DNA of 64,000 bases. It comes from Coriobacteriia bacterium (GTDB lineage Bacteria > Actinomycetota > Coriobacteriia > Anaerosomatales > JAAXUF01). Under the pieces are notes generated by a model, which had not been told where the DNA came from, searched no databases, and was given only the letters and a program-made list of their open reading frames with translations. Both the position numbers and the translations under genes were made by a program. The stretch is from assembly GCA_038245725.1 (NCBI GenBank), contig JBBRSD010000009.1, positions 2,918 to 66,917 on the forward strand. The letters are read 5' to 3'. Below, one piece after another: positions 1-20,272 of this stretch. The first letter of the stretch is position 1. The number at the start of each line of letters is the position of its first letter.

Positions 1-2
1 TG

Positions 3-167
3 GTCTCGGTACTGGGCACGCTCGTCGACTCGGAAGACGAGGACGTCATCCGCCAGGCGATCTCGCAGGTCGTCGACCCTGCCGGGACCTTCTACTGCTT
101 CACGCTGCCGACCTCGATCCTCGGCCGTGCTCGAACCACCGACCCCGCCGAGGAGGTGCGCTCATGA
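3..167 (+). CDS. C-terminal fragment of a [NiFe]-hydrogenase small subunit (MvhG-like); 5' end lies outside the window
   Basis: Frame is open from the window edge and ends ...VVDPAGTFYCFTLPTSILGRARTTDPAEEVRS. Its TGA (165-167) overlaps the ATG of the large subunit (ATGA). It sits directly upstream of the large subunit. The GTFYxFTLP tail resembles MvhG-type small-subunit C-termini (from memory). Confidence 0.5.
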   Translation, partial: VSVLGTLVDSEDEDVIRQAISQVVDPAGTFYCFTLPTSILGRARTTDPAEEVRS

Positions 168-1681
168 CGCGTATCAGCATCGACCCGATCACGCGGCTCG
201 AAGGCCACGGGCGCATCGACCTGTTCCTGGACCACGCCGGCGCCGTCGAGGAAGCGTTCCTCGTCATCCCCGAACTGCGCGGCTTCGAGAAGTTCCTCGA
301 GGGCCGTCCGGTCGAGGAGATGCCGCAGATCACCTCGCGCATCTGCGGCGTGTGCCCCGAGGCGCACCATGCGGCCGCAGCCAAGGCCGCCGACGCCGTC
401 TACAACGTCACGATCCCAGAGGCCGCCGAGGTCGCTCGGCGCCTTCAGTACAACGCCTTCATGGCCGGCGACCACGCGACGCATTTCTACGCGCTCGGCG
501 GACCCGACTTCATCGTCGGTCCCGACGCACCTGCCTCGGAGCGCAACATCATCGGCGTCATCAACAAGGTCGGTCCTGAACTCGCCGGCAAGGTCATCCG
601 CATGCGCAAGGAAGGCCACGAAGTCGCAGAGATTCTCGGCGGCCGCCGCATCCACCCAGTGGGCATGGTGCCGGGCGGCATCTCGAAGCCCGTCTCGGCG
701 GAGTCTGCGGTGCGGCTGCGCGAGATCGGCGCGTACATGGTCGAGTTCGCACAGGAGTCGCTCGCGATCTTCGACGCGATCGTGCTGCAGGACCCGCGTC
801 TTCGCGATCTCGTGCTCTCGCACGCCTACTACAACGAGACCGCGTACCTCGCGCTCGTCAACGACGACAACCAACCCGACGCCTACGACGGCCACGTGCG
901 CGTCGTCGACGCCGATGGCAGCGAGGTCGTGCGCTACCATCCGAGCGACTACCTCGAGCACATCGCCGAGGCGGTCGTGCCGTGGAGCTACCTCAAGCTG
1001 CCGTACCTGAAGTCGTTCGGCTGGCACGGGGTCTCCGACGAGAACTCACGCCACATCATGCGCACCGGCCCGCTCGGCTCGATCAACGCGTCGAGCGGAA
1101 TGCAGACGCCGCGCGCGCAAGCCGAGTACGAGCGGTTCTTCGATACGTTCGGCGGCAAGCCCGTTCACCACACGCTTGCGTTCCACTGGGCGCGCCTCAT
1201 CGAGATGCTGCAGGCCGCAGAGCTTGTCGACCGCCACGCCAACGACGAGCGGCTCACGTCGACCGACGTGCGCTCGGTGCCCACCGGCACGCCGCACGAA
1301 GGGGTGGGCTGCGTCGAGGCGCCACGCGGGCTGCTCACGCACCACTACATCACCGACGACAACGGCATCGTCGAGAAGGCGAACCTCATCGTCGGGACAA
1401 CGTACCAGTACCCCGCGATCCAGCTGTCGGTCGCCACGGCGGCGCGCGAGCTGGTCAAGCCCGGTGCCGAGCTCACCGAGCCGGTCATGAACGGCATCGA
1501 GATGGCATTTCGCGCCTACGACCCGTGCTTCGGCTGCGCGACCCACGCGCTCCCCGGCTCGAGCCCCCTCGAGGTGCGCACCTTCGGCCCGGCGGGCGAA
1601 CTGGTCGGCGGGCTGCGCCGCAACGCCGACGGCTCGCTCGAGCAGATCGACGACGCCTGCGCGAAGGGAGGCACGCGATGA
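164..1681 (+). CDS. [NiFe]-hydrogenase large subunit, group 3 / MvhA-like
   Basis: N-terminal RLEGHGRI and RICGVCPEAHH (RxCGxC Ni-Fe ligands). C-terminal DPCFGCATH (DPCxxCxxH) followed by a 44-aa propeptide. HdrA lies downstream and a maturation protease is in the same operon. Confidence 0.93.
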   Translation: MTRISIDPITRLEGHGRIDLFLDHAGAVEEAFLVIPELRGFEKFLEGRPVEEMPQITSRICGVCPEAHHAAAAKAADAVYNVTIPEAAEVARRLQYNAFMAGDHATHFYALGGPDFIVGPDAPASERNIIGVINKVGPELAGKVIRMRKEGHEVAEILGGRRIHPVGMVPGGISKPVSAESAVRLREIGAYMVEFAQESLAIFDAIVLQDPRLRDLVLSHAYYNETAYLALVNDDNQPDAYDGHVRVVDADGSEVVRYHPSDYLEHIAEAVVPWSYLKLPYLKSFGWHGVSDENSRHIMRTGPLGSINASSGMQTPRAQAEYERFFDTFGGKPVHHTLAFHWARLIEMLQAAELVDRHANDERLTSTDVRSVPTGTPHEGVGCVEAPRGLLTHHYITDDNGIVEKANLIVGTTYQYPAIQLSVATAARELVKPGAELTEPVMNGIEMAFRAYDPCFGCATHALPGSSPLEVRTFGPAGELVGGLRRNADGSLEQIDDACAKGGTR

Positions 1682-3663
1682 GCGGCCAGCACACGCCAAA
1701 GCGGTCGATGGTCTTCCTCTGTGACTGCGGCCCCATCATCCGCGACCTCATGGACCTCGACGCGCTCATGGTCGACGTCGCGCACATGCCCGGCGTCGCG
1801 AGCGTTGAGCGCCACATCACGCTCTGCTCGGCCGAAGGCAAAGCGTTCCTCGCCGAGAAGATGCGCGAGAATCCCGAGCTGCGTCCGGTCGTCGCCGCGT
1901 GCACGCCGCGCGAGCATGCCGCCGACTTCGCCGAAGCGTGCGAGGCAGCCGGCCGTAACCCGTACACGATGAGCCGCGCCAACATCCGCGAACAGGTCGC
2001 GTGGGTCACCCCCGACCGCGACGAAGCGACCGCGAAGGCCGCCGACGTGATCGCTGCGGCGGTCGCCCGCGTGAGCGAGCAGCAGCCCCTCACCGCCCCC
2101 GAGCTCGACGCCGAGACGAGCGTGCTCGTCGTCGGCTCCGGCGTCGCCGGGATGACGGCGGCGCGGCTTCTCGCCGACGCGGGCCGCACCGTCACGCTCG
2201 TCGAGCGCGAGCCGGCCATCGGCGGCAAGGTCGTGCTCCTCTCGGAGATCTATCCCGACATGGAGTGCGCTCCATGCCTGGTCGAACCACTCATGGACGA
2301 TGTCCTCCACCACCCCAACATCGAGGTCATGACGTCGGCCGAGGTCGAAGAGGTTCTCGGTTACCTGGGCAACTTCACCGTGACTGTCCGCCAGCACGCA
2401 CGCCACGTCGACGTCGACGGCTGCTACGGCTGCATCGAGACGTGCTCGGGAGTGTGCCCGGTCGAGGCCCCGAACGAGTACAACGCGGGGATGACGACTC
2501 GCAAGGCGGTGCACATCCCGTATCCCGGCTCGATGCCCAACGCAGCGGCGGTCGATGAGGCGAGCTGCCTGCACTTCACCGGCGGCGAGTGCGTCGCATG
2601 CGTCGGCGCTTGCCCCTTCGGCGTCATCAGCCTCGACGGTGCCGACGAACTCGCCGAGCGCACGGTGGGCGCCGTCATTCTCGCGACAGGCTCGCAGCTC
2701 GCACTCGACGCCGACGGCCCATGGGCGCTTCCCGGCGTGATGACGACGTGGGAGTTCGAGCGCGTCATCAACCCCGACGGCCCCACCGACGGCGAGATCC
2801 GCTTGGCCGACGGCACGGTCCCGAAGCGCATCGCGCTCGTGCACTGCGCCGACGAGTGCGGCTCCGCCCCGGCGGACGCGTGCTCGAAGACGTGCTGCCT
2901 CGCGCTCGCGAAACAGGCGCTCGACACCGCGCACAAGCTCCCGGACGCCGAGATCGTCGAGCTCGCGTTCGACCGGCAGCTCGGCGGCCCGCACTACGCG
3001 CACATGTCGGCGGCCGGCATCACGCCGGCGAATCTGCGCACGGTGCGCCTCGAGGTTGGCGACAGCGTCGCGGTGACCGCCGCTGACGACGGCGCCGTAA
3101 CGGTCACCGCTACCTCGCCCGACCGCGTTCGCGCGGGCGACTTCGATCTCGTCGTGATGGCGCCGCCGCACGTTGGCGACCAGGGAGCCATCGAGATGGC
3201 CAGGCGCATGGGCGTCGACCTTGACGAGTCCGGCTACGTCCTCGTCGCCAACAAGCGCCTGAACGCGAGCTCGAGCCGGATCGAAGGCATCTACGTCGCC
3301 GGCTCGGCACAGGGCGAAAAGGACGTCACGGCCGCGACCTCGCAGGCTGCCGCGGCTGCTGGCGCTGTTCTCTCGGCGCTCATTCCGGGCAGAAAGCTCG
3401 TGCGGGAAGCGACAACCGCCCTCGTTGACGACAAGCTGTGCGGCGGATGCCGCGTGTGCGTCCTCGCGTGCCCTTACAAAGCGATCACCTTCGACGACGA
3501 GCGAGCTATCGCCATCGTCAACGAACTCCTGTGTCACGGCTGCGGCACGTGCGCGTCAGCCTGTCCCTCCTCGGCAATCATGGCCAGGCACTTCACAGAC
3601 GATCAGATCTTGGCCGAGATTCACGCACTGTCATCTAGAGATCATGTCGCAATCATCCGATAG
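1678..3663 (+). CDS. hdrA: Heterodisulfide reductase subunit A-like FAD/FeS protein
   Basis: ATG at 1678 overlaps the hydrogenase stop (ATGA). HdrA N-terminal domain (VFLCDCG...AACTP...NIREQ). FAD fold VLVVGSGVAGMTAARLLADAG...IGGK. DMECAPC, VHCADECG...CSKTCC, and two C-terminal ferredoxin motifs (CGGCRVCVLACP, CHGCGTCASACP). The track ORF starting at 982 is an out-of-context upstream extension. Confidence 0.9.
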   Translation: MSGQHTPKRSMVFLCDCGPIIRDLMDLDALMVDVAHMPGVASVERHITLCSAEGKAFLAEKMRENPELRPVVAACTPREHAADFAEACEAAGRNPYTMSRANIREQVAWVTPDRDEATAKAADVIAAAVARVSEQQPLTAPELDAETSVLVVGSGVAGMTAARLLADAGRTVTLVEREPAIGGKVVLLSEIYPDMECAPCLVEPLMDDVLHHPNIEVMTSAEVEEVLGYLGNFTVTVRQHARHVDVDGCYGCIETCSGVCPVEAPNEYNAGMTTRKAVHIPYPGSMPNAAAVDEASCLHFTGGECVACVGACPFGVISLDGADELAERTVGAVILATGSQLALDADGPWALPGVMTTWEFERVINPDGPTDGEIRLADGTVPKRIALVHCADECGSAPADACSKTCCLALAKQALDTAHKLPDAEIVELAFDRQLGGPHYAHMSAAGITPANLRTVRLEVGDSVAVTAADDGAVTVTATSPDRVRAGDFDLVVMAPPHVGDQGAIEMARRMGVDLDESGYVLVANKRLNASSSRIEGIYVAGSAQGEKDVTAATSQAAAAAGAVLSALIPGRKLVREATTALVDDKLCGGCRVCVLACPYKAITFDDERAIAIVNELLCHGCGTCASACPSSAIMARHFTDDQILAEIHALSSRDHVAIIR

Positions 3664-3688
3664 CCCTACGGAAGGAAGAGGAACCAGA

Positions 3689-3910
3689 ATGACGACCCAC
3701 TCGCTCGATGCAAAGGGCATGCGCTGCCCGCAGCCGATCCTGAAGATTACCGCGATGCTGCCGCAGGTCGCTCCCGGCGATGTGCTCGAAGTCTCCGCCG
3801 ACTGCGCGACGTTCGAGGAGGACGTTCGCAAGTGGTGTGACCGCATGAACAAGACGCTTCTCGCCGTCACCAAGGACGGCGACGTGACCGTCGCTCAAAT
3901 CCAGTTCTAG
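3689..3910 (+). CDS. TusA/SirA-family sulfur-carrier protein
   Basis: 73 aa. LDAKGMRCPQPILKI carries the CPxP active-site motif typical of TusA. GGAAGAGG RBS upstream of ATG 3689. Confidence 0.85.
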   Translation: MTTHSLDAKGMRCPQPILKITAMLPQVAPGDVLEVSADCATFEEDVRKWCDRMNKTLLAVTKDGDVTVAQIQF

Positions 3911-3942
3911 ACCCTTCATAACCCCCCGAACGGAGGAACCCT

Positions 3943-4752
3943 GTGAGTGAGAACTCTGAACAGGGCATGGTGAGTATTACCCGTGCCGAGTACGACGCCC
4001 TGATTTCCGGCCTGGCCAGGATCAGCGACCGCGAGATGACCGAGCGTCTCGACATCAAGTCGTCGAACCCCACCTTCAACGGTCTGCAGGCGGCGATCAA
4101 CGCGCTCGTCGATGATGCCGACAAGGTGCTCGCGGCCGATCGCGATGCGACGATGAACATGGCACTCTCGATGTCGGAGTGCTTCGCCGTGCTCGACAGC
4201 GTGCGACAAGGAAACCTCGAGGCCCGTATCGGCGAAGAGTCGATCAACTCGGCCGACGAGCTCATGCGGCAGTTCGCGGGCACGCTGAACGCCACCATCG
4301 CCGACATCGAGTCGCAGATCGAGACGATCCAACGCCAGCAGAACACGCAGGCCGCGATGGAGAACCTCGTGCGCCAGCTGCAGACGCCCATCCTCCAGCT
4401 GTGGGACGACGTGCTCGCGCTTCCGGTCATCGGCATGGTCGACTCGCGGCGCAGCCAGGACATGATGGAGACGCTGCTGCAAGAGATCGTCGCCCACCGG
4501 TCCAAGTACGTGATCATCGACATCACCGGCGTGGAGATCGTGGACACGCGGACCGCCGACCACTTCGTGAAAGTCATGAAGTCGGCCGAACTTCTCGGCA
4601 CGCGCTGCGTCATGACGGGGATTCGTCCCGCCGTCGCCCAGACCCTCGTCGAGCTGGGTGTCGACCTGTCGAGCATCCGGACTCTGCGCAACCTCGAAGA
4701 GGGCCTTCGCGATTGCCTGCGCGACATGGACGCGCGCAAGGGCGCCCACTAG
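3943..4752 (+). CDS. rsbR: RsbR-like stressosome sensor protein (helical N-terminal domain plus C-terminal STAS)
   Basis: C-terminal STAS region LQLWDDVLALPVIGMVDSRR...YVIIDITGVEIVDTRTADHF...CVMTGIRPAVAQTLVELGVDL closely parallels the B. subtilis RsbR STAS. rsbS and rsbT follow. Confidence 0.8.
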   Translation: MSENSEQGMVSITRAEYDALISGLARISDREMTERLDIKSSNPTFNGLQAAINALVDDADKVLAADRDATMNMALSMSECFAVLDSVRQGNLEARIGEESINSADELMRQFAGTLNATIADIESQIETIQRQQNTQAAMENLVRQLQTPILQLWDDVLALPVIGMVDSRRSQDMMETLLQEIVAHRSKYVIIDITGVEIVDTRTADHFVKVMKSAELLGTRCVMTGIRPAVAQTLVELGVDLSSIRTLRNLEEGLRDCLRDMDARKGAH

Positions 4753-4782
4753 GCTCCTCACTCACACACAGAGAGCTCGCAA

Positions 4783-5208
4783 ATGTCTAACGCCTCACAC
4801 ATCCCGATCATCAAGCTCTACGACACGCTCATCGTGACGATCCAGGTCGAGCTGTCCGACAGCGTCATCATGGCGCTCAAGGACGACATCGGCGAAGCGA
4901 TCCAGAAGCTCGGGCCCAAAGCGCTCATCGTCGACGTCTCGGGAGTCGAGATTATCGACAGCTACATCTCCCGAGCGATTCGCGACATCGGCCTGATCTC
5001 CCGGCTGATGGGCGTGGACGCCGTCATATCCGGCCTCGACCCCAACATCGCGGTGACCCTTATCGAGATGGGCATGGATCTCGAGGGCGTGGAGACCTAC
5101 CTCCACCTCGAGGCGGCTTACGAAGCGATCAACGGCGCCGCGAGTCTCGCACGCATCGACGATCGCAAGCGCGACGAATCCGATGAAACAGCCTGGTGGC
5201 GGAGGTGA
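4783..5208 (+). CDS. rsbS: RsbS-like STAS-domain stressosome scaffold/antagonist
   Basis: IPIIKLYDTLIVTIQVEL...LIVDVSGVEIIDSYISRAI...VISGLDPNIAVTLIEMGMDLEGVETYLHLE is nearly collinear with B. subtilis RsbS, including the phospho-acceptor Ser in the IDS motif. Confidence 0.9.
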   Translation: MSNASHIPIIKLYDTLIVTIQVELSDSVIMALKDDIGEAIQKLGPKALIVDVSGVEIIDSYISRAIRDIGLISRLMGVDAVISGLDPNIAVTLIEMGMDLEGVETYLHLEAAYEAINGAASLARIDDRKRDESDETAWWRR

Positions 5209-5858
5209 CGCCCGCAGCTCATGTCACGGAAGTCCTCAACGACTACGTCGGCATCATCGTCGCGCGCTCGATCGTTACCGGCGCGGCCAGCGCTTGCGGT
5301 CTCGACCAGGAGTCCATCTCCCCCACTCAGGTCCCAGACTATCTGGGCGCGCTCGAGGCGGGGGTCCGGGCGTTCGTAGTGGAGCCCGACCGGCAGCACG
5401 AATGCGCGACGCGTCTTCGGCTGGTTCTCGAGTCGGGCAGCCTGCAGCCGCGAATCACTCCCGCGCTGACGATGATGACCGTCGACGTCAGCTGCGAGAT
5501 AGACATCGTCACCGCGCGCAACCACACGAAGACCATGTGCAACGACCTTGGCTTCAGCGCCTCCGAGCAGGTCAAGGTCGCCACCATCGTCTCCGAGCTG
5601 GCGCGCAACATCGTGCTATACGTGGGACGCGGCCGCATCGAGCTCGAGGCGGTCAACGCGCCGCGTCGTGGCATCGAGATTCGCGCAATCGACAACGGCC
5701 GCGGCATCCCCGACGTCGACAATGTGCTTTCGGGACAGTACCGCTCCAAGACCGGCATGGGCGTCGGCCTGCTGGGCACGAGACGGCTCATGGACGAGTT
5801 CAACGTTGAAACCAGCTCCAGCCTGGGCACGCGTGTCGTCGTTCGGAAGTACCGGTGA
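5196..5858 (+). CDS. rsbT: RsbT-like serine kinase (HATPase_c) with an extra ~95-aa N-terminal domain
   Basis: C-terminal 125 aa: DIVTARNHTK...VSELARNIVLYVGRGRIELE...IRAIDNGRGIPDV...GMGVGLLGTRRLMDEF matches RsbT N/G1/G2 boxes. Overlaps rsbS by 13 nt. The N-terminal extension has coding-like GC3. Confidence 0.85.
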   Translation: MAEVTPAAHVTEVLNDYVGIIVARSIVTGAASACGLDQESISPTQVPDYLGALEAGVRAFVVEPDRQHECATRLRLVLESGSLQPRITPALTMMTVDVSCEIDIVTARNHTKTMCNDLGFSASEQVKVATIVSELARNIVLYVGRGRIELEAVNAPRRGIEIRAIDNGRGIPDVDNVLSGQYRSKTGMGVGLLGTRRLMDEFNVETSSSLGTRVVVRKYR

Positions 5859-6436
5859 TGTCGGTGACCTTCGGCATCGCCCAACGACTGTGTGCCGGCG
5901 AAACCGTGTGCGGTGACGGCTACCTGGTCCGAGAGCTCGAGAACGGCGCCCTCGTCAGTGTCGTCGACGGCCTCGGCCACGGGCCGATCGCGGGCGAAGC
6001 CGCAACGGCATTCACGGACACGTTGCAGCTCGATGTGACCGGGAGCGTGCAAAAGTTGATGGAGGAGGCGAACCGCCGCCTCTCTGGCACGCGCGGAGCT
6101 GCCGCTGCAATCCTTCGCCTCGACGAGGACGCCCGCGCGGTCCACTTCACCGGCGTCGGCAACATCGAGATGCACCATGTCGCCGACGTCAAGATGCAGC
6201 CGGTGTGCGCACCGGGAATCGTAGGGCACCGCGTGCGGAAGTTCCTCACCTTCGACTTCGAGCTGCCCGACGACGTCCTCATCGCGCTGTGCTCCGACGG
6301 CATCTCGAGCCGCCTTCGCCTCTCGGAATACGCACATCTCGAACCGCAGGAGATCGCCGATGCGCTCCTCGAGGACCACGGCAAGTCCCACGACGATGCC
6401 ACGTGCGTTGTCATGCGCTATGCACGCGAAGGGTGA
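5858..6436 (+). CDS. rsbX: RsbX-like PP2C/SpoIIE-family phosphatase
   Basis: GETVCGDGY...VVDGLGHGPIAGEAA...GVGNIE...LCSDGI...HDDATCVV matches the RsbX/PP2C pattern. ATG at 5858 overlaps the rsbT stop (TGATG); a GTG at 5855 is an alternative start. Confidence 0.8.
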   Translation: MSVTFGIAQRLCAGETVCGDGYLVRELENGALVSVVDGLGHGPIAGEAATAFTDTLQLDVTGSVQKLMEEANRRLSGTRGAAAAILRLDEDARAVHFTGVGNIEMHHVADVKMQPVCAPGIVGHRVRKFLTFDFELPDDVLIALCSDGISSRLRLSEYAHLEPQEIADALLEDHGKSHDDATCVVMRYAREG

Positions 6437-6441
6437 GCCAG

Positions 6442-6933
6442 ATGCCGAACAAACGCACATGCCGCAAGACTCTGAAGTGTTTCCTGCACCGGCTCATCGA
6501 CGTGATGGCGTGCACGCAGCAGGCCACCGAACTCATCGCCGCCCATGGCTTTCGCGAGCGCGAGATCTGGGAGATCGGCATCGCCTTCTCGGAACTCGCG
6601 ACGAACGTGACCCGGCACGGTGGTGGCGGGAAGATCACGCTCGAGTTCGTGACCGGGCCCGAGCCCGGACTCCTCATGACCGCCGAGGACAGCGGACCGG
6701 GCATCCCCGACGTGCATGCGGCCTTCGCCGATGACTTCTCGGAGGGGCGGGTGCTCTCGACCAACGTTTCGCCAGCCCACCGGAATGGGCTCGGCAGCGG
6801 GCTCGGCGCGGTCCGGCGGTTCACTGACCACGTGCACATCGTGAGCGCGCCAGGCGCGGGCACGACGGTGCGGGCCTTCAAGCGGCTGCCTGCGGGCAGT
6901 GAGTTCACCTCGGAGCTGGAGTCGGCGGGGTGA
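6442..6933 (+). CDS. Second anti-sigma-factor-type serine kinase (RsbT/RsbW-like HATPase_c)
   Basis: IAFSELATNVTRHGGGGKITLEF...AEDSGPGIPDV...NGLGSGLGAVRRF gives N, G1 and G2 boxes. ATG lies 5 nt after the rsbX stop. The start is somewhat uncertain (an internal VMAC is an alternative). Confidence 0.7.
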   Translation: MPNKRTCRKTLKCFLHRLIDVMACTQQATELIAAHGFREREIWEIGIAFSELATNVTRHGGGGKITLEFVTGPEPGLLMTAEDSGPGIPDVHAAFADDFSEGRVLSTNVSPAHRNGLGSGLGAVRRFTDHVHIVSAPGAGTTVRAFKRLPAGSEFTSELESAG

Positions 6934-7439
6934 CGGCTGCGCCACATGCGGAGTCGAGCGACTCACTGCCGGTTGCGGGCCCCTGGCTGGTTCTCGGCCT
7001 CGGCAACGCGATCCTGTGCGATGACGGCGTCGGCATCAAAGTCGCGCGCCACATCGCCGAGACGGTCTCGGGCCCCGAGGTCGTCGTCAGGGAAGCCGAG
7101 CTCGCCGGCTTCGCGCTCATCGACCTCCTCGAGGGCTTCGAGCGCGCCATCGTGGTCGACGCGGTGAAACTGCGCGACGCCAAGCCCGGCGCCATCGTGG
7201 TCTTCGAGGACTCGCTGCTGAAGCCGTCGCTGCACCTGGTCGCTGGTCACCAGATCGATCTGCCCACGGCACTCGAGATGGGCCGCCGGCTAGGCCGGCC
7301 GGTCCCCGAGACGGTCTACGTCGTCGGCGTGCAGATCGAAGACGACACGACCTTCTCGGAGAGCTGCACGCCCACGGTCGAGGCTGCAATTCCGGCAGCG
7401 GCGGACGCGGTGCTGCGCATCATCGCCGAGGCGCGGTAG
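6930..7439 (+). CDS. Hydrogenase maturation endopeptidase (HycI/HoxM/FrhD family)
   Basis: LVLGLGNAILCDDGVGIKVARHI (GxGNxxxxDDGxG), VVDAV, and GHQIDL. The GTG start overlaps the upstream stop (GTGA). Confidence 0.9.
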   Translation: MTAAPHAESSDSLPVAGPWLVLGLGNAILCDDGVGIKVARHIAETVSGPEVVVREAELAGFALIDLLEGFERAIVVDAVKLRDAKPGAIVVFEDSLLKPSLHLVAGHQIDLPTALEMGRRLGRPVPETVYVVGVQIEDDTTFSESCTPTVEAAIPAAADAVLRIIAEAR

Positions 7440-7528
7440 CGTGCGTCTCACCCGCCGCGGGAGCGACTGGCCAGGGCGTGCGACCGGTTTTCGCCGCGTG
7501 TCATACTTCGCGTGAGGTGAGATTCGAG

Positions 7529-8395
7529 ATGACGCACTCTGCCGATCTGCCCGCCGGTGCGGTCCACATCGCCGGGGACACGCACTACCTGCCAGGCCTG
7601 ACGAACTCCGGCTTCATCGAGGGCCTCGTCATCGACACCGGGCCCGAGCCGGGACCCTACGAGGGCGTCGCTATCGACCGCCTCGCGATCACGCATGGCC
7701 ACGCCGACCACTTCGCGGTCGGATCGGTCCTGCGCACGCACGGGGCCACGGTGGTCGCGGCTCGCGACGACGCGGCACTCGTAGAGAATCCCGACATCAA
7801 CATCCGCGGCATGTTCAGCTGGGCCAAGCCCGGCGACATCCTCGTGACGAAGCTCTTCCTCGGCGTGGGGTGCAAGGTCGATGCGCTCGTCGAGGACTGG
7901 CGGGACCGCCGAGCCACGCCGGCTCCGCTGCCAGGCCACTCTCTCGGGCACACGGCGTTCCTGACGCGCGACGGCGTGCTCTTCACCGGCGACGCGCTCT
8001 ATCAGGAGGCGCTATGGAAGCGCCATCCGCTCCCCTACGCGATCGACCCGGACATGGTCGCCGCCTCGCTCGCCCGCATCCGCGAGCTCGACTTCGACTG
8101 GCTCGTCCCCGGCCACGGCGAGCTTTCAGACCGCGCGACCGCGCTGCGCGACATCGACTTCCACCTCGCGCAGATCCGCGCGATCGAACAGCTGCTCCTC
8201 TCTGAGCTGCGCAAGCCTCACACGACCGAAGAGGCGATCGCGCTCGTCTCGGGCCGCCGAGGCCTGTCCGATAACCCCGCCCAGTACTGGCTGGCCGTCA
8301 CGACAGTGAAGGGTTACCTCGGCAATCTGCTCGGAAGAGGGCTGCTCGAGTTCTCTGTGGTGAATCACGCAGGGGTGTGGAGGAGTGCCGACTAG
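7529..8395 (+). CDS. MBL-fold metallo-hydrolase
   Basis: ITHGHADHFAVGS (HxHxDH), plus later GHSLGH and PGHG motifs. ATG 7529 is preferred over GTG 7478. Confidence 0.8.
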   Translation: MTHSADLPAGAVHIAGDTHYLPGLTNSGFIEGLVIDTGPEPGPYEGVAIDRLAITHGHADHFAVGSVLRTHGATVVAARDDAALVENPDINIRGMFSWAKPGDILVTKLFLGVGCKVDALVEDWRDRRATPAPLPGHSLGHTAFLTRDGVLFTGDALYQEALWKRHPLPYAIDPDMVAASLARIRELDFDWLVPGHGELSDRATALRDIDFHLAQIRAIEQLLLSELRKPHTTEEAIALVSGRRGLSDNPAQYWLAVTTVKGYLGNLLGRGLLEFSVVNHAGVWRSAD

Positions 8396-8942
8396 TGAGC
8401 ATCGGGTGAACCGCGTCACAGCTTTCATCGCGCTTGCGCTCGCCGCCTTCGCGCTGAGCGGGTGCGTCGCGGACCGCGGACCGTCGACCAGCCCGGCCGC
8501 GACGCCTGGCGCCGGCGCATCGCGCGCGGCGACCGCACCGCCGTCGTCTGCCGCCACGCCTACCGCCGAGCAACAATCCGCGCGGCTCTCGGAGGGCGCG
8601 AAGCGTTACGCGACGAGCATCGGCGGCAAGTCGCGTCGGGGTAAGACGCTCTACTTCATCATCGGCGCGAGCACCACGAGCGAGGCCGCGGCGCAAGCAG
8701 CCCTCGACACCGCCAAGCCGTCCTTTGGCGATCTGCAGTCCTACTTCATCGTCCAGAAGTCCGACAACTTCGCAGGAATGCGGCCAGGATGGTGGATCGT
8801 CGTCGAGCCGTATCGGGAGAAGAAGCACGTCGCCGAGCAGCTCGTATTCGCGCAACGCGGCTTCCCGGATGCCTACGTCAGCCGCGCCAAGGTGAAGACG
8901 ACCGACCCCATTCCCGTCTACGAAGACGCGGTGGGGCTCTAG
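8385..8942 (+). CDS. Putative lipoprotein, function unknown
   Basis: Signal peptide with lipobox FALSGC, a Pro/Ala/Ser-rich linker, and a globular C-terminal ~100 aa. Confidence 0.6.
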   Translation: MPTSEHRVNRVTAFIALALAAFALSGCVADRGPSTSPAATPGAGASRAATAPPSSAATPTAEQQSARLSEGAKRYATSIGGKSRRGKTLYFIIGASTTSEAAAQAALDTAKPSFGDLQSYFIVQKSDNFAGMRPGWWIVVEPYREKKHVAEQLVFAQRGFPDAYVSRAKVKTTDPIPVYEDAVGL

Positions 8943-9029
8943 CGATTCAACCCGCGCTGCGCGTTTCGCGACGAACTCGAACGGAAACCCATCAGTGAGA
9001 ACTTCGCGACCGATCAAAGGAGCGCCGCC

Positions 9030-9605
9030 ATGCCCAGCGTCAAGGGAACGCAGACCGAACTCAACCTCCTGAAGGCCTTCGCCGGCGAGAGCCAGGCGCG
9101 AAACCGCTACGGGTTCTTCGCAAGCGTCGCGAAGAAGGATGGCCTCGAGCAGATCGCCGCGATCTTCGACGAGACCGCCGCCAACGAGCGCGAACACGCG
9201 AAGGTCTTCTTCAAGTACCTCGAAGGCGGCGACACGGAGATCACGGCCACCTACCCCGCAGGTAAGATCGGCTCCACCGCCGAGAATCTGCTGGCCGCGG
9301 CGGAAGGCGAGCTTCTCGAGTGGGGCACGCTCTACCCGGACTTCGCGCGGGTCGCCGACGCTGAAGGCTTCACCGAGGTCGCCGAGTCGTTCCGCCAGAT
9401 CGCCACGGTGGAGGCGCATCACGAGAAGCGCTACCGCACGCTGCTTGAGAACGTAAACGGCTACAAGGTCTTTAAGAAGGACGGCGTGGTCTTCTGGAAA
9501 TGCCGCAACTGCGGCTACGTGTTCGAGGGCTCCGAAGCCCCGGAGTGCTGTCCCGCATGCAAGCATCCGCAGGCCTACTACGAGCTGCTCTGCGAGAACT
9601 ACTAG
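9030..9605 (+). CDS. rbr: Rubrerythrin
   Basis: Diiron ferritin-like domain (ESQARNRY, EREHAKVF, EGELLEW, VEAHHEKRY) plus a C-terminal rubredoxin-like CRNCG...CPACKHP. Confidence 0.93.
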   Translation: MPSVKGTQTELNLLKAFAGESQARNRYGFFASVAKKDGLEQIAAIFDETAANEREHAKVFFKYLEGGDTEITATYPAGKIGSTAENLLAAAEGELLEWGTLYPDFARVADAEGFTEVAESFRQIATVEAHHEKRYRTLLENVNGYKVFKKDGVVFWKCRNCGYVFEGSEAPECCPACKHPQAYYELLCENY

Positions 9606-9653
9606 CGGTCCCGCACGAGGCGAGACCAGCCCAGCAACGGGCGCGACCGGATC

Positions 9654-10526
9654 CTACCGCACGATCTTGCTGATGGGGATCTCGAGGATGTCCTCGGCGC
9701 CCGCTGCCTTCAGCTGTGGGATGAGGATGTTGACTGTCGACTTATCGGCGACCGTCGTGACCTCGAGGTCGTTGGAGCCGTAGAGCTTGGCGACGGTGGG
9801 ATGCTTCATCGCAGGCAAACAGCCGATGACCGCGTCGAGCTTGCTCTCCGCAACGTTCATCGAGAGCAGGACACGGCCGCGCGCCTCGATCACTCCCAGC
9901 AGCAGCGTGCGGATCTCTTCGATCTCGCGGCGCTTCTCGGGGTCGGCCCAGCTGGCTTTGTTGGCGAGCAGGCGCGTCGTTGACGTGAGCACGGTATCGA
10001 TGATCTTGAGGCCGTTGCGGCGCAGCGTCGAGCCTGTCTCAGTAAGGTCGACAAGGGCGTCCATCATGTCCGGGACCTTGGCCTCGGTCGCTCCGTAGCT
10101 GAAGTGAATCTCGACCGGAATGCCGAGGTCGTCAAAGTACTTCTTGGTCACCACGGGGAACTCCGTCGTGATGCGACTGCCCGGCGCGATGTCGCGCGCG
10201 CATTCGGCAGGCGAATCGTCTGGCACGGCGAGCACCATCTTCACCACGCCGGTACCGGTCTTGGCGTACGGCAGCTCGGCGACCTCGACGACGTCGGCGC
10301 CGGTCTCGGTCACCCAGTCGAAGCCCGAGATTCCCAGGTCGAAGTAGCCGCTCTCAACGAAGATCGGGATCTCCTGCGGCCGAAGGATCTTCACCTTGCC
10401 GATTCGCGGGTCCGCGATGACCGGGTTGTACTCTCGGCTCGACTTCTTGACTTCGAGGTCCGCCTGCGAGAACAACAGCAGCGTCTGTTCGCCGAGAGAA
10501 CCCTTGGGAAGCGCGATCGTCAGCAT
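9654..10526 (-). CDS. hisG: ATP phosphoribosyltransferase, long form
   Basis: MLTIALPKGSL..., DLGISGFDWV, LVDLTETGSTLRRNGL, and a C-terminal regulatory domain. Confidence 0.93.
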   Translation of the reverse strand: MLTIALPKGSLGEQTLLLFSQADLEVKKSSREYNPVIADPRIGKVKILRPQEIPIFVESGYFDLGISGFDWVTETGADVVEVAELPYAKTGTGVVKMVLAVPDDSPAECARDIAPGSRITTEFPVVTKKYFDDLGIPVEIHFSYGATEAKVPDMMDALVDLTETGSTLRRNGLKIIDTVLTSTTRLLANKASWADPEKRREIEEIRTLLLGVIEARGRVLLSMNVAESKLDAVIGCLPAMKHPTVAKLYGSNDLEVTTVADKSTVNILIPQLKAAGAEDILEIPISKIVR

Positions 10527-11491: not shown

Positions 11492-12445
11492 ATGTTGAAC
11501 GTGAACCGGCTCAGAATGCTTCGGGAAGTGGCGTCGCGCGGAACGATCGCAGCGGCGGCTGAAGCGTTGTTCATGACACCGTCGGCGATCTCCCAGCAGA
11601 TGGCGACGTTGGAACGCGAAGCGGGGGCGTCGCTGCTCGAGCGCAAGGGCCGAGGCGTGCGCCTCACAGACGTCGGTCTCAGGCTCGTCGAGAACACTGA
11701 GCGCATCCTCGCCGATCTCGAGCGGGCGGAGGCCGATGTCGCCGCCGCGTCGCACGGCATCGTCGGCCGCGTGCGCGTCTCGGCGTTCCCCACAGCGGCG
11801 AGAGCCTTGCTCGTCCCCGCGCTCGCCGATCTCCAGACGCGCTACCCGAACCTGCACATCTCGATGGTCGACCTCGAGCCCGAGGAATCACTGCCCGCGC
11901 TCAAGAACCGCGACCTCGATGTCGTCGTCGCCTACGAGTGGGGGCTGCTCCCCCGCCTGGCCGACCGCGGGATCGAGCGCGAGAAGCTGCTCACCGAGCC
12001 GGTCTATCTCGCGCTGCCCGCGAGTCACCGGCTGGCGAACACGGGTCCGGTCTCACTCGACGCTCTGCGTGACGAGGAGTGGATCGTCGGCCGCGACTCC
12101 ACGTCGATGCTCGACCTCGTGATCGCAGCGACGCGACGCCGCGGTTACGAGCCGCGCACCGACTTCCACTCGATGGACTTCCAGGTGATCCTCTCGGCCG
12201 TGGGCGCGGGACTCGGCGTTGCGCTTGTGCCGCCTCTCGCGCTCATCGGCAGCTACCCCAACGTCGAGATCACCCACGTCAGCGACGTGACGATCGACCG
12301 CACGATCTGGGCGGCGATCCGCAAGGGGAGCAAGGGGAATCCCGGAATCGCCGTCGTGCTCGCCGCACTGCGGCAAGCCGCCAAGGATGTTGCGGCGCGC
12401 ATTCCAGCGCCCGCAGAGGAGCCGCCGGCCGAGCCGGTGGTGTGA
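11492..12445 (+). CDS. LysR-family transcriptional regulator
   Basis: N-terminal wHTH LRMLREVASRGTIAAAAEALFMTPSAISQQMATLE..LLER.GRGVRLTDVG, then a LysR substrate-binding domain. Confidence 0.9.
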   Translation: MLNVNRLRMLREVASRGTIAAAAEALFMTPSAISQQMATLEREAGASLLERKGRGVRLTDVGLRLVENTERILADLERAEADVAAASHGIVGRVRVSAFPTAARALLVPALADLQTRYPNLHISMVDLEPEESLPALKNRDLDVVVAYEWGLLPRLADRGIEREKLLTEPVYLALPASHRLANTGPVSLDALRDEEWIVGRDSTSMLDLVIAATRRRGYEPRTDFHSMDFQVILSAVGAGLGVALVPPLALIGSYPNVEITHVSDVTIDRTIWAAIRKGSKGNPGIAVVLAALRQAAKDVAARIPAPAEEPPAEPVV

Positions 12446-12469
12446 CCGGACTGAGGGTGCGCGGGCTGA

Positions 12470-13947: not shown

Positions 13948-16863
13948 TCACACGATTTCGGCCGCATCGGCCGACGCCCCCTCGGATGAGTCCACCGAAC
14001 CGCCTGCCCGTTTCCTAGCAACAACCACGCCGCCGCCCAACAGCACGAGCGCGAGAACGAACGCCACGGCACTGACGCCTGCACCCACGCCCAGACCCGG
14101 CGTCGAATATCGCAAGGTAAGCTGGTGCGAGCCCGCTCGTACCGGAATGCCGATGAAGCCGAGATTCGCCCGAACGACACTCGCCGAGCGACCGTCGATA
14201 GTGGCCCTCCAGCCGCTGCTGTACGGCACGCTCAGGAAGAGCAGCCCGTCGCGCTTCGCCGAGAAGTTCGCGCGGACGTCGTCCCCGTTCACGTGAACGT
14301 CGTGGAGTGACTCTTCGCGCAATGCCGCGACACTTTCGGCGTAACCCTTCATCGGCACGGCGTAGACCTTCAGCGCCTGATATGTGTAGACGCCCGCCAG
14401 AGTTGGGCGGACGAACGCGGCCGTTGTACCTTCCGCCGAGTAGCCCAAGTTGACGAGCTGCGACTGGTCGCCCCAGAAATAGTTGTTGCTTGGGGATTCG
14501 TTGCGCTCGGTCTTGCGCGCACCGCCCGTGTCGTACACGAGCGTGATGGTCTGCGGCTGAACGACCTTGCCGTCGGCTTTCCAGTATTCCGCCCTCGCCG
14601 CGGCGGATGTCGACGGCTGAGGCAGAGGGAGATTGCGGGCCTTGGGCGACTCCTTGCGATACGTGAAGCCGACAAAGTCGACGTAGAGTTCGGAATCGGG
14701 CACGGCATTGAAGTGCAGCTCGAGCTTGCGCGACAAGGCCAGCGTTCGAAACCGGTGGTTCGCGGTGTCGATCTCGACCGCTTTGGTCGGCGTGACCGAG
14801 AACGGCAGGTCGAGGACGGGAAGGCGGCTGGCGGCTGCGGGAAGCGACACGGGTGTGCCGGTGTCGAGCACCGCGCTCTGAAGCAGTGTCTGCTGTCGCT
14901 CGAGAGGAGTCATGGCGTCGTACTGGGCGCGAGAGACGCCCGAGTGGTAGACGTAACCGAGCGGCAGCGCGTAGCGGTTCTCATAGACGGTGCTGGCCCC
15001 TGAACGCGCGAACGGCGCGAACCCGTAGGGCACATACGCGGCACCGGCATTCGGGGCGATGTAGTACTTGACCGCGTTCAGCGTGAGAAGAGCGGCACGT
15101 TCGTCGAACCCGTTGAAGTCGAAGGAGAGCCGCATCGGCCGATTGTCGAGCTTGCGCAGGTATTCCGAAACGCCGGCATTGAGCACCGAGTAGTAGAAGC
15201 TCGTGCCATCGTAGCCTTGAACGAGTGGGTCGTTGGACGCGGTGACGCCCAGGTCGCTGCCGCGGGCGTCGCGCTGTTTGTCGACCCGGAAGAATCCGTC
15301 CCCCGGTAAACCCGCCGCGAGAGAGCCGGCGTTCACCTGGAAGAGATGGAGAACGCCGCCGAGCGGTTCGAATCGCTTGAGATAGTTGGCGCCGTGCCGG
15401 CTGTAGAGAACTGCGCCGTTGGCGGCGATGTTGAGGACGAGCAGCGCCACGACGCCGTATCGGAACCATCCCATCGCCCGCCCGCGAAGCCTCTTGTCCG
15501 GGCCGTCTTCGTGCGACTTGGCGCTTCGGTCAGCTCGTTGCTTCGCCCAGGACTCGAACGCCAGCGTCGCCCACGTCAGTAGGCCGATGGCGAGCGCTGG
15601 TGAGGCCGCGAGTGCCTGATGCCTCGTACCGAACGCAAGCACGAGCGCGCCGTACACGAGCAGGCTCGTGAGCATCGCGATGAGCTCGCGACGAGAAAAG
15701 GGCTTCGGGTCGGACAGCAGCACCGCCGCACCCGCAGCGAGGAAGATCCCCCACGTGAAGATGAATCGGTAGCTTAGGAACGAGACCCCGTTGAACAGCG
15801 ATCCGAAGAACGGAAACGCCAGGAAGATGAAGTACGCAGCGATCATGACTTTGATGGTGAGATTGCGCCCGCGTCGCATGAGCAGCGGAGGAAACAGCAG
15901 AAAGCCCAGCACCGGGTAGCCTTCGTACGCTGAGTTCGTCCCCGGCAGCGACGACATGAGGCTCATAAGGTAGGACCGGTACGTCCCGATGCTCGCGAAG
16001 AGCCCGATTGCGTGCTGCCCCATCGCGCGCGAACTGCCGAACACCGCGAGTACCACGGGCACGACGCTCACGGCCGCCAGAGCGGTCCCCAGCAGGTAGA
16101 ACCCTGCCGTCTTCGCCGCGACGGAGCCGAAGCGCTTCCAGCGATCCTCGGGAGAGCTCAGCTCGAAGTAGCGCACGACCGCGTAGAGCACTGCCACGAA
16201 CGTAAGCTGGTAGAAGAAGTAGAAGTTACTGAATGCCGAGAGGAACACGCCGAGTACAAGGAGGTACGGGCGCCGCCCATGCAGCACCCGCTCGATGCCG
16301 AGAAGCATCAGAGGGAAGAAGACGATCGGGTCTGCGAAGTAGGGATGCCTGAAGGCGCTGAAGAGCGCGAACGTCGTGAATACGTACATCAGCGATCCCG
16401 CACTGGCCGCCAGTGGTTTGGCGGCCATCGAACGCAGGTAGAGGTACGCGAGTGCTCCGGCAGCGAAGAGGCGCACGAAGAACAGCATCAGGTATGCGAG
16501 TTCAAGGTAATGCATGGGGAATACGAGGCTCACTATCGCGAACGGGTCGAACACGTAGAACGCCAACGTCCCCAGCGTGTCGGCGCCAAGGCCGAGGTTC
16601 CACGTCCACTGGGGAATGCCGGCAAGCGGGTGGTGAAGAAACGCTCTCACTATGGTGTTGTAGAAGTAGAGCGCCGGGAAGTGCTGGGCCATGCCGTCGA
16701 GCCACCACACGTTCGACTTGTGATAGAGCGGCAGGTACCAGAACACGAGGGCTCCGGCGAGTGCGAAGAGCAACGAGAAGCCGAGTGCACGGGTGGCACG
16801 CAGACGCGACGTGCTCGGCTGCCCGGGCGTAGGCGATGTGGGACCGGCTGTCGTCAACCGCAC
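13948..16863 (-). CDS. YfhO-family polytopic membrane protein (putative GT-C-type glycosyltransferase), paralogue 1
   Basis: 971 aa. More than 10 N-terminal TM helices, a large extracytoplasmic C-terminal domain and a terminal TM anchor. Collinear similarity to 50320-53184. Adjacent divergent GT2. Confidence 0.8.
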   Translation of the reverse strand: MRLTTAGPTSPTPGQPSTSRLRATRALGFSLLFALAGALVFWYLPLYHKSNVWWLDGMAQHFPALYFYNTIVRAFLHHPLAGIPQWTWNLGLGADTLGTLAFYVFDPFAIVSLVFPMHYLELAYLMLFFVRLFAAGALAYLYLRSMAAKPLAASAGSLMYVFTTFALFSAFRHPYFADPIVFFPLMLLGIERVLHGRRPYLLVLGVFLSAFSNFYFFYQLTFVAVLYAVVRYFELSSPEDRWKRFGSVAAKTAGFYLLGTALAAVSVVPVVLAVFGSSRAMGQHAIGLFASIGTYRSYLMSLMSSLPGTNSAYEGYPVLGFLLFPPLLMRRGRNLTIKVMIAAYFIFLAFPFFGSLFNGVSFLSYRFIFTWGIFLAAGAAVLLSDPKPFSRRELIAMLTSLLVYGALVLAFGTRHQALAASPALAIGLLTWATLAFESWAKQRADRSAKSHEDGPDKRLRGRAMGWFRYGVVALLVLNIAANGAVLYSRHGANYLKRFEPLGGVLHLFQVNAGSLAAGLPGDGFFRVDKQRDARGSDLGVTASNDPLVQGYDGTSFYYSVLNAGVSEYLRKLDNRPMRLSFDFNGFDERAALLTLNAVKYYIAPNAGAAYVPYGFAPFARSGASTVYENRYALPLGYVYHSGVSRAQYDAMTPLERQQTLLQSAVLDTGTPVSLPAAASRLPVLDLPFSVTPTKAVEIDTANHRFRTLALSRKLELHFNAVPDSELYVDFVGFTYRKESPKARNLPLPQPSTSAAARAEYWKADGKVVQPQTITLVYDTGGARKTERNESPSNNYFWGDQSQLVNLGYSAEGTTAAFVRPTLAGVYTYQALKVYAVPMKGYAESVAALREESLHDVHVNGDDVRANFSAKRDGLLFLSVPYSSGWRATIDGRSASVVRANLGFIGIPVRAGSHQLTLRYSTPGLGVGAGVSAVAFVLALVLLGGGVVVARKRAGGSVDSSEGASADAAEIV

Positions 16864-19426: not shown

Positions 19427-20272
19427 TCAGCGAACACGCACCTTGTTCGCGTACTCGACGCCGTTCACAAGGAACGGCTGATCGACACTGTTGAGCGGGT
19501 CGGCCGGGTCGAAATCGAAGATGTTCGGCGTGCCTCGGTCGGCGTAGAGCGAGACCGCCAGCCTCGAACTCAGTGGAAGCGGATCAAGCGGGACCACAAC
19601 GCCCGTACTCTCACCCGAACGAACGTGTGCGAGCCCGATCCGCTGACCTTGGCCGCCATCCTTGTCGATACGGACGACTACCCACGCCGCTCCCGGTGCC
19701 GACACTCGCGAGATCAGAAGCGACTTCGACGCTCCGATCTGGTCGTCTGCGACGAGCGCGACCTTAGATGCGTCAACTGGGATCCCATACTGGCGCACCG
19801 CCACGACCGCAGCGAGTTCCCTGCCGCCGACGATGATGGGCCGATCAGCGCTTTGCGTCTTGCTCATCGGGTCGAAGTCAAACGTGCCTCGGGTGCCGCG
19901 GTCGGCGTACAGCGTCACGATGACCTGCGGGGTCTTGAGGTTCTCCAGAGGAATAGCAACGTCGCGCGACTCGCCTGAGAGAACGAACGACGTCGCCAGC
20001 TGGTCGCCCGGCTGCCCTCCCACATCGGCGTTGACGACGAGCCACGCATCGTCAGGGGCGAGCACGCGTTTGATGTTGAGCTGCTCGACTCCGATCTGAC
20101 TCGCAGAAACCTCGAGTTGCGCTTTGCTCGGCGACGCCACATAACCCAACAACTTCGCTTGCTGCGCGATCTGGCTGTTGGAGTTCACGCAGCCGGACAT
20201 GGCGACAACAGCGATCGCCGACAGTGTCAGACCTGTGCGGGAGAATCGCTTCATTGGTGGGCGCGCTTTCAC
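19427..20272 (-). CDS. Lipoprotein with two tandem copies of the same unassigned domain
   Basis: Lipobox VAMSGC. The repeats contain [14 protein letters not shown]...[11 protein letters not shown]...[15 protein letters not shown] and [14 protein letters not shown]...[11 protein letters not shown]...[15 protein letters not shown]. The GTG start overlaps the copA stop (GTGA). Confidence 0.65.

Follow-up and report, generated by a model that had tools for sequence, protein, structure and literature searches.

In the stressosomes described so far, a scaffold of RsbR and RsbS holds the kinase RsbT, which phosphorylates both scaffold proteins and is then released, after which the phosphatase RsbX resets the scaffold; free RsbT works by directly binding its effector. 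It is through this diffusing, free RsbT that known stressosomes act on their targets (PMC9237128). The module considered here is carried by a 64,000-nt stretch of DNA from a Coriobacteriia bacterium (contig JBBRSD010000009.1), the whole of which is called the window. In it, five Rsb-type genes (3943-6933, + strand) are flanked by mvhA-hdrA-tusA on one side and by hycI, the gene for a hydrogenase maturation endopeptidase, on the other. On comparative evidence, which is the basis of the whole analysis, this module is probably dedicated functionally to the hydrogenase system that surrounds it. Its output could be the maturation endopeptidase itself, so that the stressosome would gate the processing of the hydrogenase large subunit, a serious though tentative possibility.

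The stressosome of Bacillus subtilis and Listeria monocytogenes has the same R-S-T-X gene order as the window, the same phosphoserine motif in RsbS and the same phosphothreonine positions in RsbR, and its RsbX matches the phosphatase of the window. It feeds sigma-B partner switching, whereas RsbU, RsbV, RsbW and a sigma factor are all absent from the 64 kb studied here. The window also differs in the four-helix domain of its RsbT, in a second RsbT paralogue coupled or fused to a protease, and in its setting in a metabolic operon. In Moorella thermoacetica, the output of the MtR-MtS-MtT-MtX module is a diguanylate cyclase (10.1101/138586). This module resembles the one proposed here in combining RsbRST-X with a non-sigma output; its phosphatase MtX, also of 193 aa, is the closest solved relative of the PP2C in the window, and MtS is a close solved relative of the RsbS. 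However, the Moorella output is a GGDEF protein, whereas the neighbour and fusion partner of the module in the window is HycI, and the GGDEF genes are on the opposite strand, at distances of 41 and 56 kb.

In Vibrio vulnificus and V. brasiliensis, the RsbRSTX system senses O2 with a haem-globin RsbR and has a two-component output (PMC4976288, PMC9237108). It can be likened to the window in that it is a stressosome that controls metabolism in an organism without sigma-B, and the RsbR of V. vulnificus is the best solved match for the STAS region of the RsbR in the window. The N-domain of the latter, however, contains no histidine at all, which rules out haem sensing of the Vibrio kind, with its globin-like haem holding; moreover, no hybrid kinase or response regulator is present in cis. 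In Mycobacterium marinum, rsbR-rsbS-rsbT-rsbX-rsbUW feeds sigma-F and is patchily distributed among close relatives (PMC8115616). This is again an actinobacterial RsbRST-X module with an additional RsbW-like GHKL gene and a patchy presence, as in the window and its relatives. The extra gene of M. marinum, however, encodes a PP2C joined to a kinase, with an anti-sigma factor as its presumed target, whereas that of the window is an RsbT-like kinase linked to HycI, and the window has no linked sigma-F system.

On the hydrogenase side, [NiFe] maturation ends with an irreversible step, in which an endopeptidase removes the C-terminal extension of the large subunit. The HycI, HybD and HoxW proteases resemble the HycI of the window in being encoded after the structural genes and in having as substrate DPCxxCxxH followed by a tail. 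To our knowledge, and in the literature searched, these proteases are single-domain and unregulated, whereas the HycI described here is fused, or apparently translationally coupled, to a signalling kinase. HoxBC-HoxJ-HoxA and HupUV-HupT-HupR are histidine-kinase/response-regulator systems that use a hydrogenase as sensor and control transcription; they share with the window a signalling kinase dedicated to a hydrogenase system, and we know of no hydrogenase-dedicated signalling other than such H2-sensing systems. The window differs from them in its STAS/GHKL partner switching, in the absence of a DNA-binding component and in the link to the maturation protease. The literature searched, which covers few subscription journals, contains no report linking a stressosome, RsbT or partner switching to a hydrogenase or its protease, in keeping with the first-pass annotation of this DNA, which knew of no described example. 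The module of the window differs from the described stressosomes by its metabolic operon and its two RsbT-type kinases, one with an N-domain and the other with a link to a protease.

The genes called in the window were scanned with Pfam, and the flanking hydrogenase genes also with NCBIfam. Positions 164-7439 of the + strand form a single run of nine co-oriented genes:

164..1681, + strand: [NiFe]-hydrogenase large subunit, group 3c, MvhA-VhuA-like (mvhA; Pfam NiFeSe_Hases, 2.9e-35; NCBIfam VhuA, 3.8e-112)
1678..3663, + strand: HdrA-like flavin/FeS subunit (hdrA; NCBIfam HdrA2, 1.7e-153; Pfam Pyr_redox_2 and Fer4)
3689..3910, + strand: TusA-family sulfur carrier with a CPQP cysteine motif (tusA; Pfam TusA, 8.6e-18)
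3943..4752, + strand: RsbR-type co-antagonist, 269 aa (rsbR; Pfam STAS, 1.9e-14)
4783..5208, + strand: RsbS-type single-STAS scaffold protein, 141 aa (rsbS; Pfam STAS, 3.4e-9)
5205 (alternatively 5196)..5858, + strand: RsbT-type GHKL Ser/Thr kinase, here RsbT-long, 217 or 220 aa (rsbT; HATPase_c, 2.3e-9; HATPase_c_2, 6.3e-8)
5855..6436, + strand: RsbX-type PPM/PP2C phosphatase, 193 aa (rsbX; Pfam SpoIIE, 5.4e-9)
6442..6933, + strand: second RsbT-like GHKL kinase, Kin2, 163 aa, with an ATG start (kin2; HATPase_c_2, 1.5e-12)
6930..7439, + strand: HycI/HybD-type maturation endopeptidase (hycI; TIGR00072, 2.6e-29; Pfam HycI, 4.3e-12)

The five consecutive Rsb-type genes that the first-pass annotation had seen at 3943-6933 are borne out both by Pfam, which supports the STAS, HATPase_c_2 and SpoIIE/PP2C domains alike, and by family-specific matches to solved structures; the Pfam and NCBIfam matches of the flanks likewise agree with the position it gave them, between mvhA-hdrA-tusA and the endopeptidase and all on the + strand. 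RsbR matches the RsbR of V. vulnificus (7o0i_B, 8e-32) and that of Listeria (7e-26) in the Protein Data Bank (PDB), and in its C-terminal STAS domain Thr202 (VDT) and Thr234 (AQT) are invariant in 9/9 sequences of one alignment and 7/7 of another. RsbS matches B. subtilis RsbS (6jhk, 1.5e-24) and Moorella MtS (2vy9, 1.2e-21) in phmmer searches. It had been called almost collinear with B. subtilis RsbS, down to the IDS phosphoserine, and the alignment confirms this: it runs over residues 6-116 (111 residues) and places the 'IIDS' motif (Ser60) on the 'MIDS' phospho-Ser59 of B. subtilis ('veiidsyis' versus 'VDMIDSFIA'). For the phosphatase, the solved matches are Moorella MtX (3zt9, 5e-19) and B. 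subtilis RsbX (3w40, 4e-14). With this serine motif in RsbS, the two threonines in RsbR, rsbT directly after rsbS and rsbX after rsbT, the five genes are, as far as genes alone can tell, a genuine stressosome-type module.

The N-domain of RsbR is helical, and its Cys80 is invariant; it matches no Pfam family. A HAMP identity was considered but is not supported, the only match being a faint one (E 0.19) in the related locus L010. The idea that Cys80 is a hydrogenase-specific sensor residue is weakened by the alignment of a cysteine at the same position in a relative without hydrogenase linkage, L093.

RsbT-long has 633 homologues, which are named RsbT by JGI; in an alignment of 40 of them, none departs from its N, G1 and G2 boxes. 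Its kinase domain is 40% identical over 129 aa to B. subtilis RsbT, a figure that serves as a lead only. A sequence search of the PDB with RsbT-long matched no RsbT chain, only SpoIIAB (E about 0.008). The protein carries a conserved extra N-terminal four-helix bundle (approximately residues 3-78, some 75 aa; window 5205-5470), which is common to hydrogenase-linked and unlinked 'long RsbT' members. An AlphaFold2 (AF2) model of RsbT-long has a predicted local distance difference test score (pLDDT) of 91.4, with the bundle above 90. Foldseek searches with this model gave SpoIIAB and RsbW as the best matches, over the kinase domain only; for the four-helix domain, they gave no convincing structural relative, and Pfam gave no family even at E values up to 10. 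PDK/BCKDK and HK853 were dismissed as whole-chain relatives, since at a root-mean-square deviation of about 20 Å the likeness is topological only.

Kin2 also has conserved N, G1 and G2 boxes, together with a 12-aa insertion in the ATP lid. The first-pass annotation had described it as a further kinase of RsbT/RsbW type; the HATPase_c_2 match upholds the kinase, which resembles RsbT more than RsbW. It is 32% identical over 148 aa (full length) to B. subtilis RsbT (again a lead only), and among PDB sequences it matches SpoIIAB at a borderline level (E 0.007) but does not match RsbW. Its homologues, of which a rather insensitive search gave 59 matches, are named RsbT by JGI.

The nine genes are closely packed. 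The intergenic gaps are 25 nt (hdrA-tusA), 32 nt (tusA-rsbR), 30 nt (rsbR-rsbS) and 5 nt (rsbX-kin2), so that the claim of no gap above 32 nt is exact, and there are five 4-nt start/stop overlaps: small subunit/mvhA (164/167), mvhA/hdrA, rsbS/rsbT, rsbT/rsbX and kin2/hycI. Four of the overlaps had been placed at these same junctions by the first-pass annotation; that at rsbT had been drawn from 5196, but GTG 5205 is the more likely start, because it gives a GTGA overlap and because an independent gene call on L001 has the same start. L001 is a longer contig with the same sequence, which adds upstream the small subunit and a partial MvhD. A consensus scan of positions 1-9700 found no promoter-like site, and it found only two weak terminator-like sites, both within hdrA, against a chance expectation of 3.7, which fits the earlier view that the run leaves no room for an internal promoter or terminator. 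At third codon positions, the cassette genes have a GC content of 0.82-0.88, as do genes elsewhere in the window, which has about 66% GC overall; the cassette therefore bears no foreign-DNA signature.

The linkage is conserved. The gene-neighbourhood survey that had been suggested as a check shows the cassette within the mvhDGA-hdrA-tusA-hycI operon, between the hydrogenase genes and hycI, in all the hydrogenase-linked relatives inspected except L010, namely L001-L005, L088, L089, L170 and L171; several of the relatives' assemblies are error-prone. L088 and L089 keep the order mvhD, small subunit, large subunit, hdrA, tusA, rsbR, rsbS, rsbT, rsbX, kin2, hycI, and so do L002/L003, L004, L005 and L170, where RsbT is 66%, 50%, 50% and 45% identical, respectively, to that of the window. 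L171 (43%) has the order hdrA, tusA, rsbR, rsbS, rsbT, rsbX, hycI, without kin2. The linkage reaches down to about 43% identity in RsbT and 62% in the large subunit. L010 is rearranged: the genes for RsbS and the PP2C precede mvhD, which the PP2C gene overlaps by 4 nt, those for RsbR and a Kin2-type kinase come downstream of tusA, and neither RsbT-long nor hycI is found before the contig ends. Four architectures can accordingly be distinguished, with Kin2 and HycI encoded separately by genes that overlap by 4 nt, with the two fused, with Kin2 absent, or with Rsb genes on both flanks of the hydrogenase. The adjacency of tusA and rsbR is kept in all four, including the rearranged L010, and the cassette abuts hycI in every cassette-bearing locus long enough to show it.

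Unlinked homologues of RsbT-long also exist (P0068, P0070, P0090 and P0106), which have 38-43% identity and PAS- or GAF-type RsbR partners. In a neighbour-joining tree of RsbT-long, the known hydrogenase-linked sequences form one clade; its sister, P0068, and the more distant members are unlinked. From the hydrogenase side, a survey of one genome per species gave 80 loci, which were annotated by tblastn with the window proteins. None of 76 loci from Chloroflexota, Planctomycetota, Ignavibacteria and other groups has Rsb genes beside its group-3c hydrogenase; in these outgroup loci, large-subunit identity is 53-59%, the usual order is hdrA, mvhD, small subunit, large subunit, hycI, and in at least 50 of them hycI follows the structural genes. 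A metagenome scan with the RsbT alignment, which yielded only distant relatives among the matches listed, was used as a negative control: hydrogenase genes lie near 0 of 80 distant RsbT loci among those matches. The two controls together indicate that the linkage is specific to the clade.

The four closest loci (65-85% large-subunit identity) have the window's order of mvhD, small subunit, large subunit, hdrA and tusA. Among them, the cassette is present in L009 (which is record L004 again), rearranged in L010 and absent from L008 and L011; in L008, hycI starts 6-8 nt past the tusA stop. In the large-subunit tree, L008 is sister to the cassette-bearing L002 (92% identity), L011 is sister to the cassette-bearing L004, and L010 is basal. 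Since L008 and L011 nest among cassette-bearing loci, the simplest history would be one early acquisition of the cassette followed by at least two clean losses; on this comparison, the module was recruited into the group-3c operon once, early in the clade. The clade consists of high-GC uncultured bacteria, and the INSDC label of L011 is 'uncultured Actinomycetes bacterium'. In L011 (10001-13732), a long-read MAG, the large-subunit frame continues across hdrA and tusA with no stop codon, and both hdrA and the small-subunit gene look split, anomalies that may be due either to sequencing indels or to a decaying operon.

The best NCBIfam match of the large subunit is VhuA, with a score under the equivalog cut-off. 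The protein has the Ni-binding motifs RICGVCPEAH and DPCFGCATH, and an Oxidored_q6 small subunit and FlpD/MvhD are encoded upstream of it in L001, L002 and other loci, so that the marks of a group 3c Mvh-type enzyme (two CxxC motifs, small subunit, MvhD and adjacent HdrA) are all present; no HdrB or HdrC was seen in the 64-kb window. DPCFGCATH is followed by a C-terminal extension of 44 aa. This extension (window 1520-1681) is 38-44 aa long in the clade versus 25-28 aa in the outgroups, and it is a trait of the clade rather than of the cassette, because the longer tail is also found in the cassette-less L008. The order of the structural genes in the clade also differs from that of the 76 outgroup loci, and tusA is always part of the clade's group-3c operon. 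The acceptor of the Mvh-HdrA enzyme may be a TusA-bound sulfur species.

In the window, the kin2 stop overlaps the hycI start by GTGA, which suggests that the two are translationally coupled. In L005, they are a single open reading frame of 311 aa. A search with this L005 protein gave 32 distinct 90%-identity clusters of Kin2-HycI fusions (306-345 aa, 42-100% identity), all of which carry both HATPase_c_2 (PF13581) and HycI (PF01750) and which come from NCBI, ENA, JGI and Logan. L088 is a clean contig of 518 kb that carries the fusion within a complete operon. Among the fusion contigs, at least 11 are equal in length to contigs with RsbT-long homologues and are probably the same contigs. The fused proteins keep the N, G1 and G2 boxes of the kinase and the invariant acidic and histidine positions of the protease; D176/D177, D222 and H252, which we take to be the HybD metal ligands, are invariant across the 32 fused HycI homologues. 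The linker is variable and of low complexity. Its counterpart in the window consists of a 14-aa tail on Kin2 and a 19-aa low-complexity N-terminal tail on HycI, and the window therefore carries a split form of the Kin2-HycI unit. Members of the fusion family are currently annotated as 'hydrogenase maturation protease' or left unnamed.

A long-read frameshift artefact was considered, given that L005 and L089 have split genes, and is rejected in view of the 32 clusters, the four sources and the clean L088 contig. Independent, recurrent fusions are not supported either: an exhaustive profile search of 1.84 billion representatives gave one full-length Kin2-HycI representative at the 50% identity level, which points to a single lineage-specific event. 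Among the weaker matches (P0223-P0231), HATPase_c_2 kinases are fused to sigma-70 regions 2 and 4 (P0223, P0228, P0229, with 192 member sequences, and P0231) or to SpoIIE/PP2C (P0225-P0227 and P0230). In the sigma-70 fusions, an anti-sigma-type kinase is joined covalently to its presumed partner, and these families show that GHKL partner-switching kinases do fuse with partners.

A canonical output is not found in cis within the area covered, namely the 64-kb window and those flanks of the relatives that were annotated with Pfam. All the genes called in the window were scanned, and they include no sigma factor, RsbU, RsbV or response regulator, as had been said; the same statement about GGDEF proteins has to be amended, for the window contains two such genes, and only two (47674-48972 and 62887-63996), both distant from the cassette and on the opposite strand. 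Nor does any canonical output lie beside the cassette in the annotated flanks of relatives.

Because the translation of HycI seems to be coupled to that of Kin2 in the window, and most relatives make the two as one protein, the maturation protease, rather than a transcription factor, is the favoured candidate for the output. By analogy with other stressosomes, the RsbR/RsbS scaffold would either hold the Kin2-HycI unit or let it go, a signal received by the N-domain of RsbR would set which of the two occurs, cleavage of the 44-residue extension of pre-MvhA would thereby become conditional on that signal, and the PP2C would reset the scaffold. We infer that a complex forms; whether control is by activation or by sequestration, what the signal is and what the four-helix domain of RsbT-long does are matters of inference too. 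The fuller version, in which the scaffold sequesters and releases the RsbT-paralogue-HycI unit, so gating cleavage, and in which the signal is perhaps a thiol or persulfide passed from TusA to the RsbR cysteine, is slightly less probable than the choice of the protease as output. The fused proteins begin with the signalling domain and end with the enzyme, which is the usual receiver-effector order and argues for the protease as an output. L171 and L010, despite their altered architectures, keep the association with the hydrogenase, which is also in favour of this proposal, as is the restriction of the linkage to the clade.

Several observations weigh against a protease output. The fusion is one event, and adjacent overlapping genes fuse easily. 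No kinase-protease pairing is universal, since L171 has no Kin2 and L010 has neither RsbT-long nor hycI up to the end of its contig. L008 and L011 have no cassette, and the hydrogenase can therefore do without it. The AF2 model of one naturally occurring fusion (pLDDT 82.6, predicted template-modelling score 0.52) has a disordered linker and no defined kinase-protease interface; it speaks neither for nor against an intramolecular interface. Finally, related multi-kinase modules elsewhere also lack a visible output in cis, and an output encoded elsewhere is thus a general possibility for the family.

The first-pass annotation had proposed that the module is wired to hydrogen/redox metabolism, which the conserved operon linkage, the monophyletic clade and the fusion all support, and it had left two options. 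Of these, post-translational control is favoured by the Kin2-HycI fusion, with the endopeptidase rather than the hydrogenase/Hdr complex as target; the use of that complex as an input is less favoured. In the input alternative, the hydrogenase system would supply the signal (for example, a persulfide from TusA on the RsbR cysteine, or the maturation status relayed by the HycI domain, could serve), and the output would lie elsewhere, as in a sigma-factor partner-switching set, with RsbT-long as the released output kinase. The adjacency of tusA and rsbR in every architecture and the invariance of Cys80 in the RsbR N-domain fit such a scheme, yet the cysteine is also found in L093 and so is not specific to this context, and tusA is also found in operons without the cassette. 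The extra domain of RsbT-long, conserved and confidently modelled, would suit an output kinase; related modules in other contexts have no visible output in cis either, and known stressosomes reach their targets by diffusing free RsbT (PMC9237128). Set against this, an enzyme fused C-terminally to a signalling domain would be unusual for a sensor, and no output gene was seen in the 64 kb, which leaves the input alternative unlikely.

Another possibility is that one or both kinases phosphorylate or bind Mvh-HdrA or TusA, switching electron flow in the mature enzyme, and that both the proximity of hycI and the fusion reflect co-expression only. Both kinases keep all of their ATP-binding boxes, the cassette always lies inside the structural operon, L171 lacks Kin2 but keeps the rest, and the Rsb genes of L010 adjoin mvhD and tusA, all of which would be compatible with control of the enzyme itself. 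However, the RsbT-family kinases (RsbT, RsbW and SpoIIAB) are known to phosphorylate STAS partners rather than unrelated enzymes, the only covalent link found is with HycI and with no structural subunit, and the cassette abuts hycI wherever the locus is long enough to show it; this possibility is improbable. The last explanation is hitch-hiking, in which a general stress module was inserted by chance and inherited with the operon, with no role specific to the hydrogenase. That the cassette is dispensable, having been cleanly lost twice, and that similar cassettes exist in many unrelated contexts is what such an insertion would lead one to expect. Nevertheless, the linkage has held over a deep clade (large-subunit identity of about 62%, RsbT identity of 43%), L010 was rearranged without leaving the operon, start/stop overlaps are present on both flanks, and the fusion has persisted with conservation of both its domains, so that hitch-hiking is very improbable indeed.

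A number of further features of these loci deserve mention. Just downstream of hycI, the window has a metallo-beta-lactamase-fold hydrolase (7478..8395, + strand; Lactamase_B, 1.4e-11), which is kept in L002 (12228-13109), L003 and L008 (14264-15127), with or without the cassette, and its gene may be part of the operon. A radical-SAM/SPASM protein of about 400 aa lies beside the operon, on either side, in L002 (271-1476), L088 (11076-12266) and L089 (811-2019); the sole radical-SAM gene of the window is at 30550-31914 (454 aa). In L170, a second hycI paralogue (11956-12447) lies 0.7 kb downstream of the operon hycI and is followed by chemotaxis-type genes (CheB, CheX, CheD and a PAS histidine kinase). 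Large Hanks-type Ser/Thr kinases are found directly beside Rsb modules in the hydrogenase-linked L010 (4028-7327, with AAA and TPR domains) and in the unlinked L093 (5990-8494, - strand).

Outside the hydrogenase context, a six-gene layout of RsbR, RsbS, RsbT, a Kin2-like kinase, PP2C and an RsbT-like kinase is common in soil and sediment metagenomes (e.g., L094, L097, L100, L103, L107, L110, L117, L121 and many others). Modules of the stressosome type that have two or three RsbT paralogues thus appear to be widespread; they are not known to have been described.

As regards other genes of the window, a LysR-type regulator (11492-12445) and a rubrerythrin (9030-9605) are syntenic with the operon in several relatives (L002, L089), and the former is the nearest candidate transcriptional regulator. 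A triad of PadR, HAAS-sensor and Toast-rack proteins recurs in L002, L004 and L089. The window contains no rRNA gene. It also encodes a 185-aa protein that has no Pfam family and begins like a lipoprotein ('LSGC'; 8385-8942), two YfhO-family membrane proteins of about 970 aa (13948-16863 and 50320-53247), a P-type ATPase of 1339 aa with four HMA domains (20269-24288) and a multihaem cytochrome-like protein with Cytochrome_C7 and MtrC-like matches (36605-38047).

Stressosomes are widespread, and their activators and targets beyond the sigma-B paradigm are largely unknown. If the maturation endopeptidase is indeed the output of the module described here, no stressosome before it would have had an output that is direct, enzymatic and non-transcriptional and that acts on a defined substrate, and it would be the first signalling checkpoint known on hydrogenase maturation. 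The read-out would be the cleavage of one defined C-terminal peptide, so that signalling from scaffold to output could be testable in vitro. For the hydrogenase, it would mean a signal-dependent, post-translational control of the last maturation step, a layer so far undescribed, by which a pool of metal-loaded precursor would be activated without new transcription, or the assembly of an oxygen-sensitive enzyme would be blocked.

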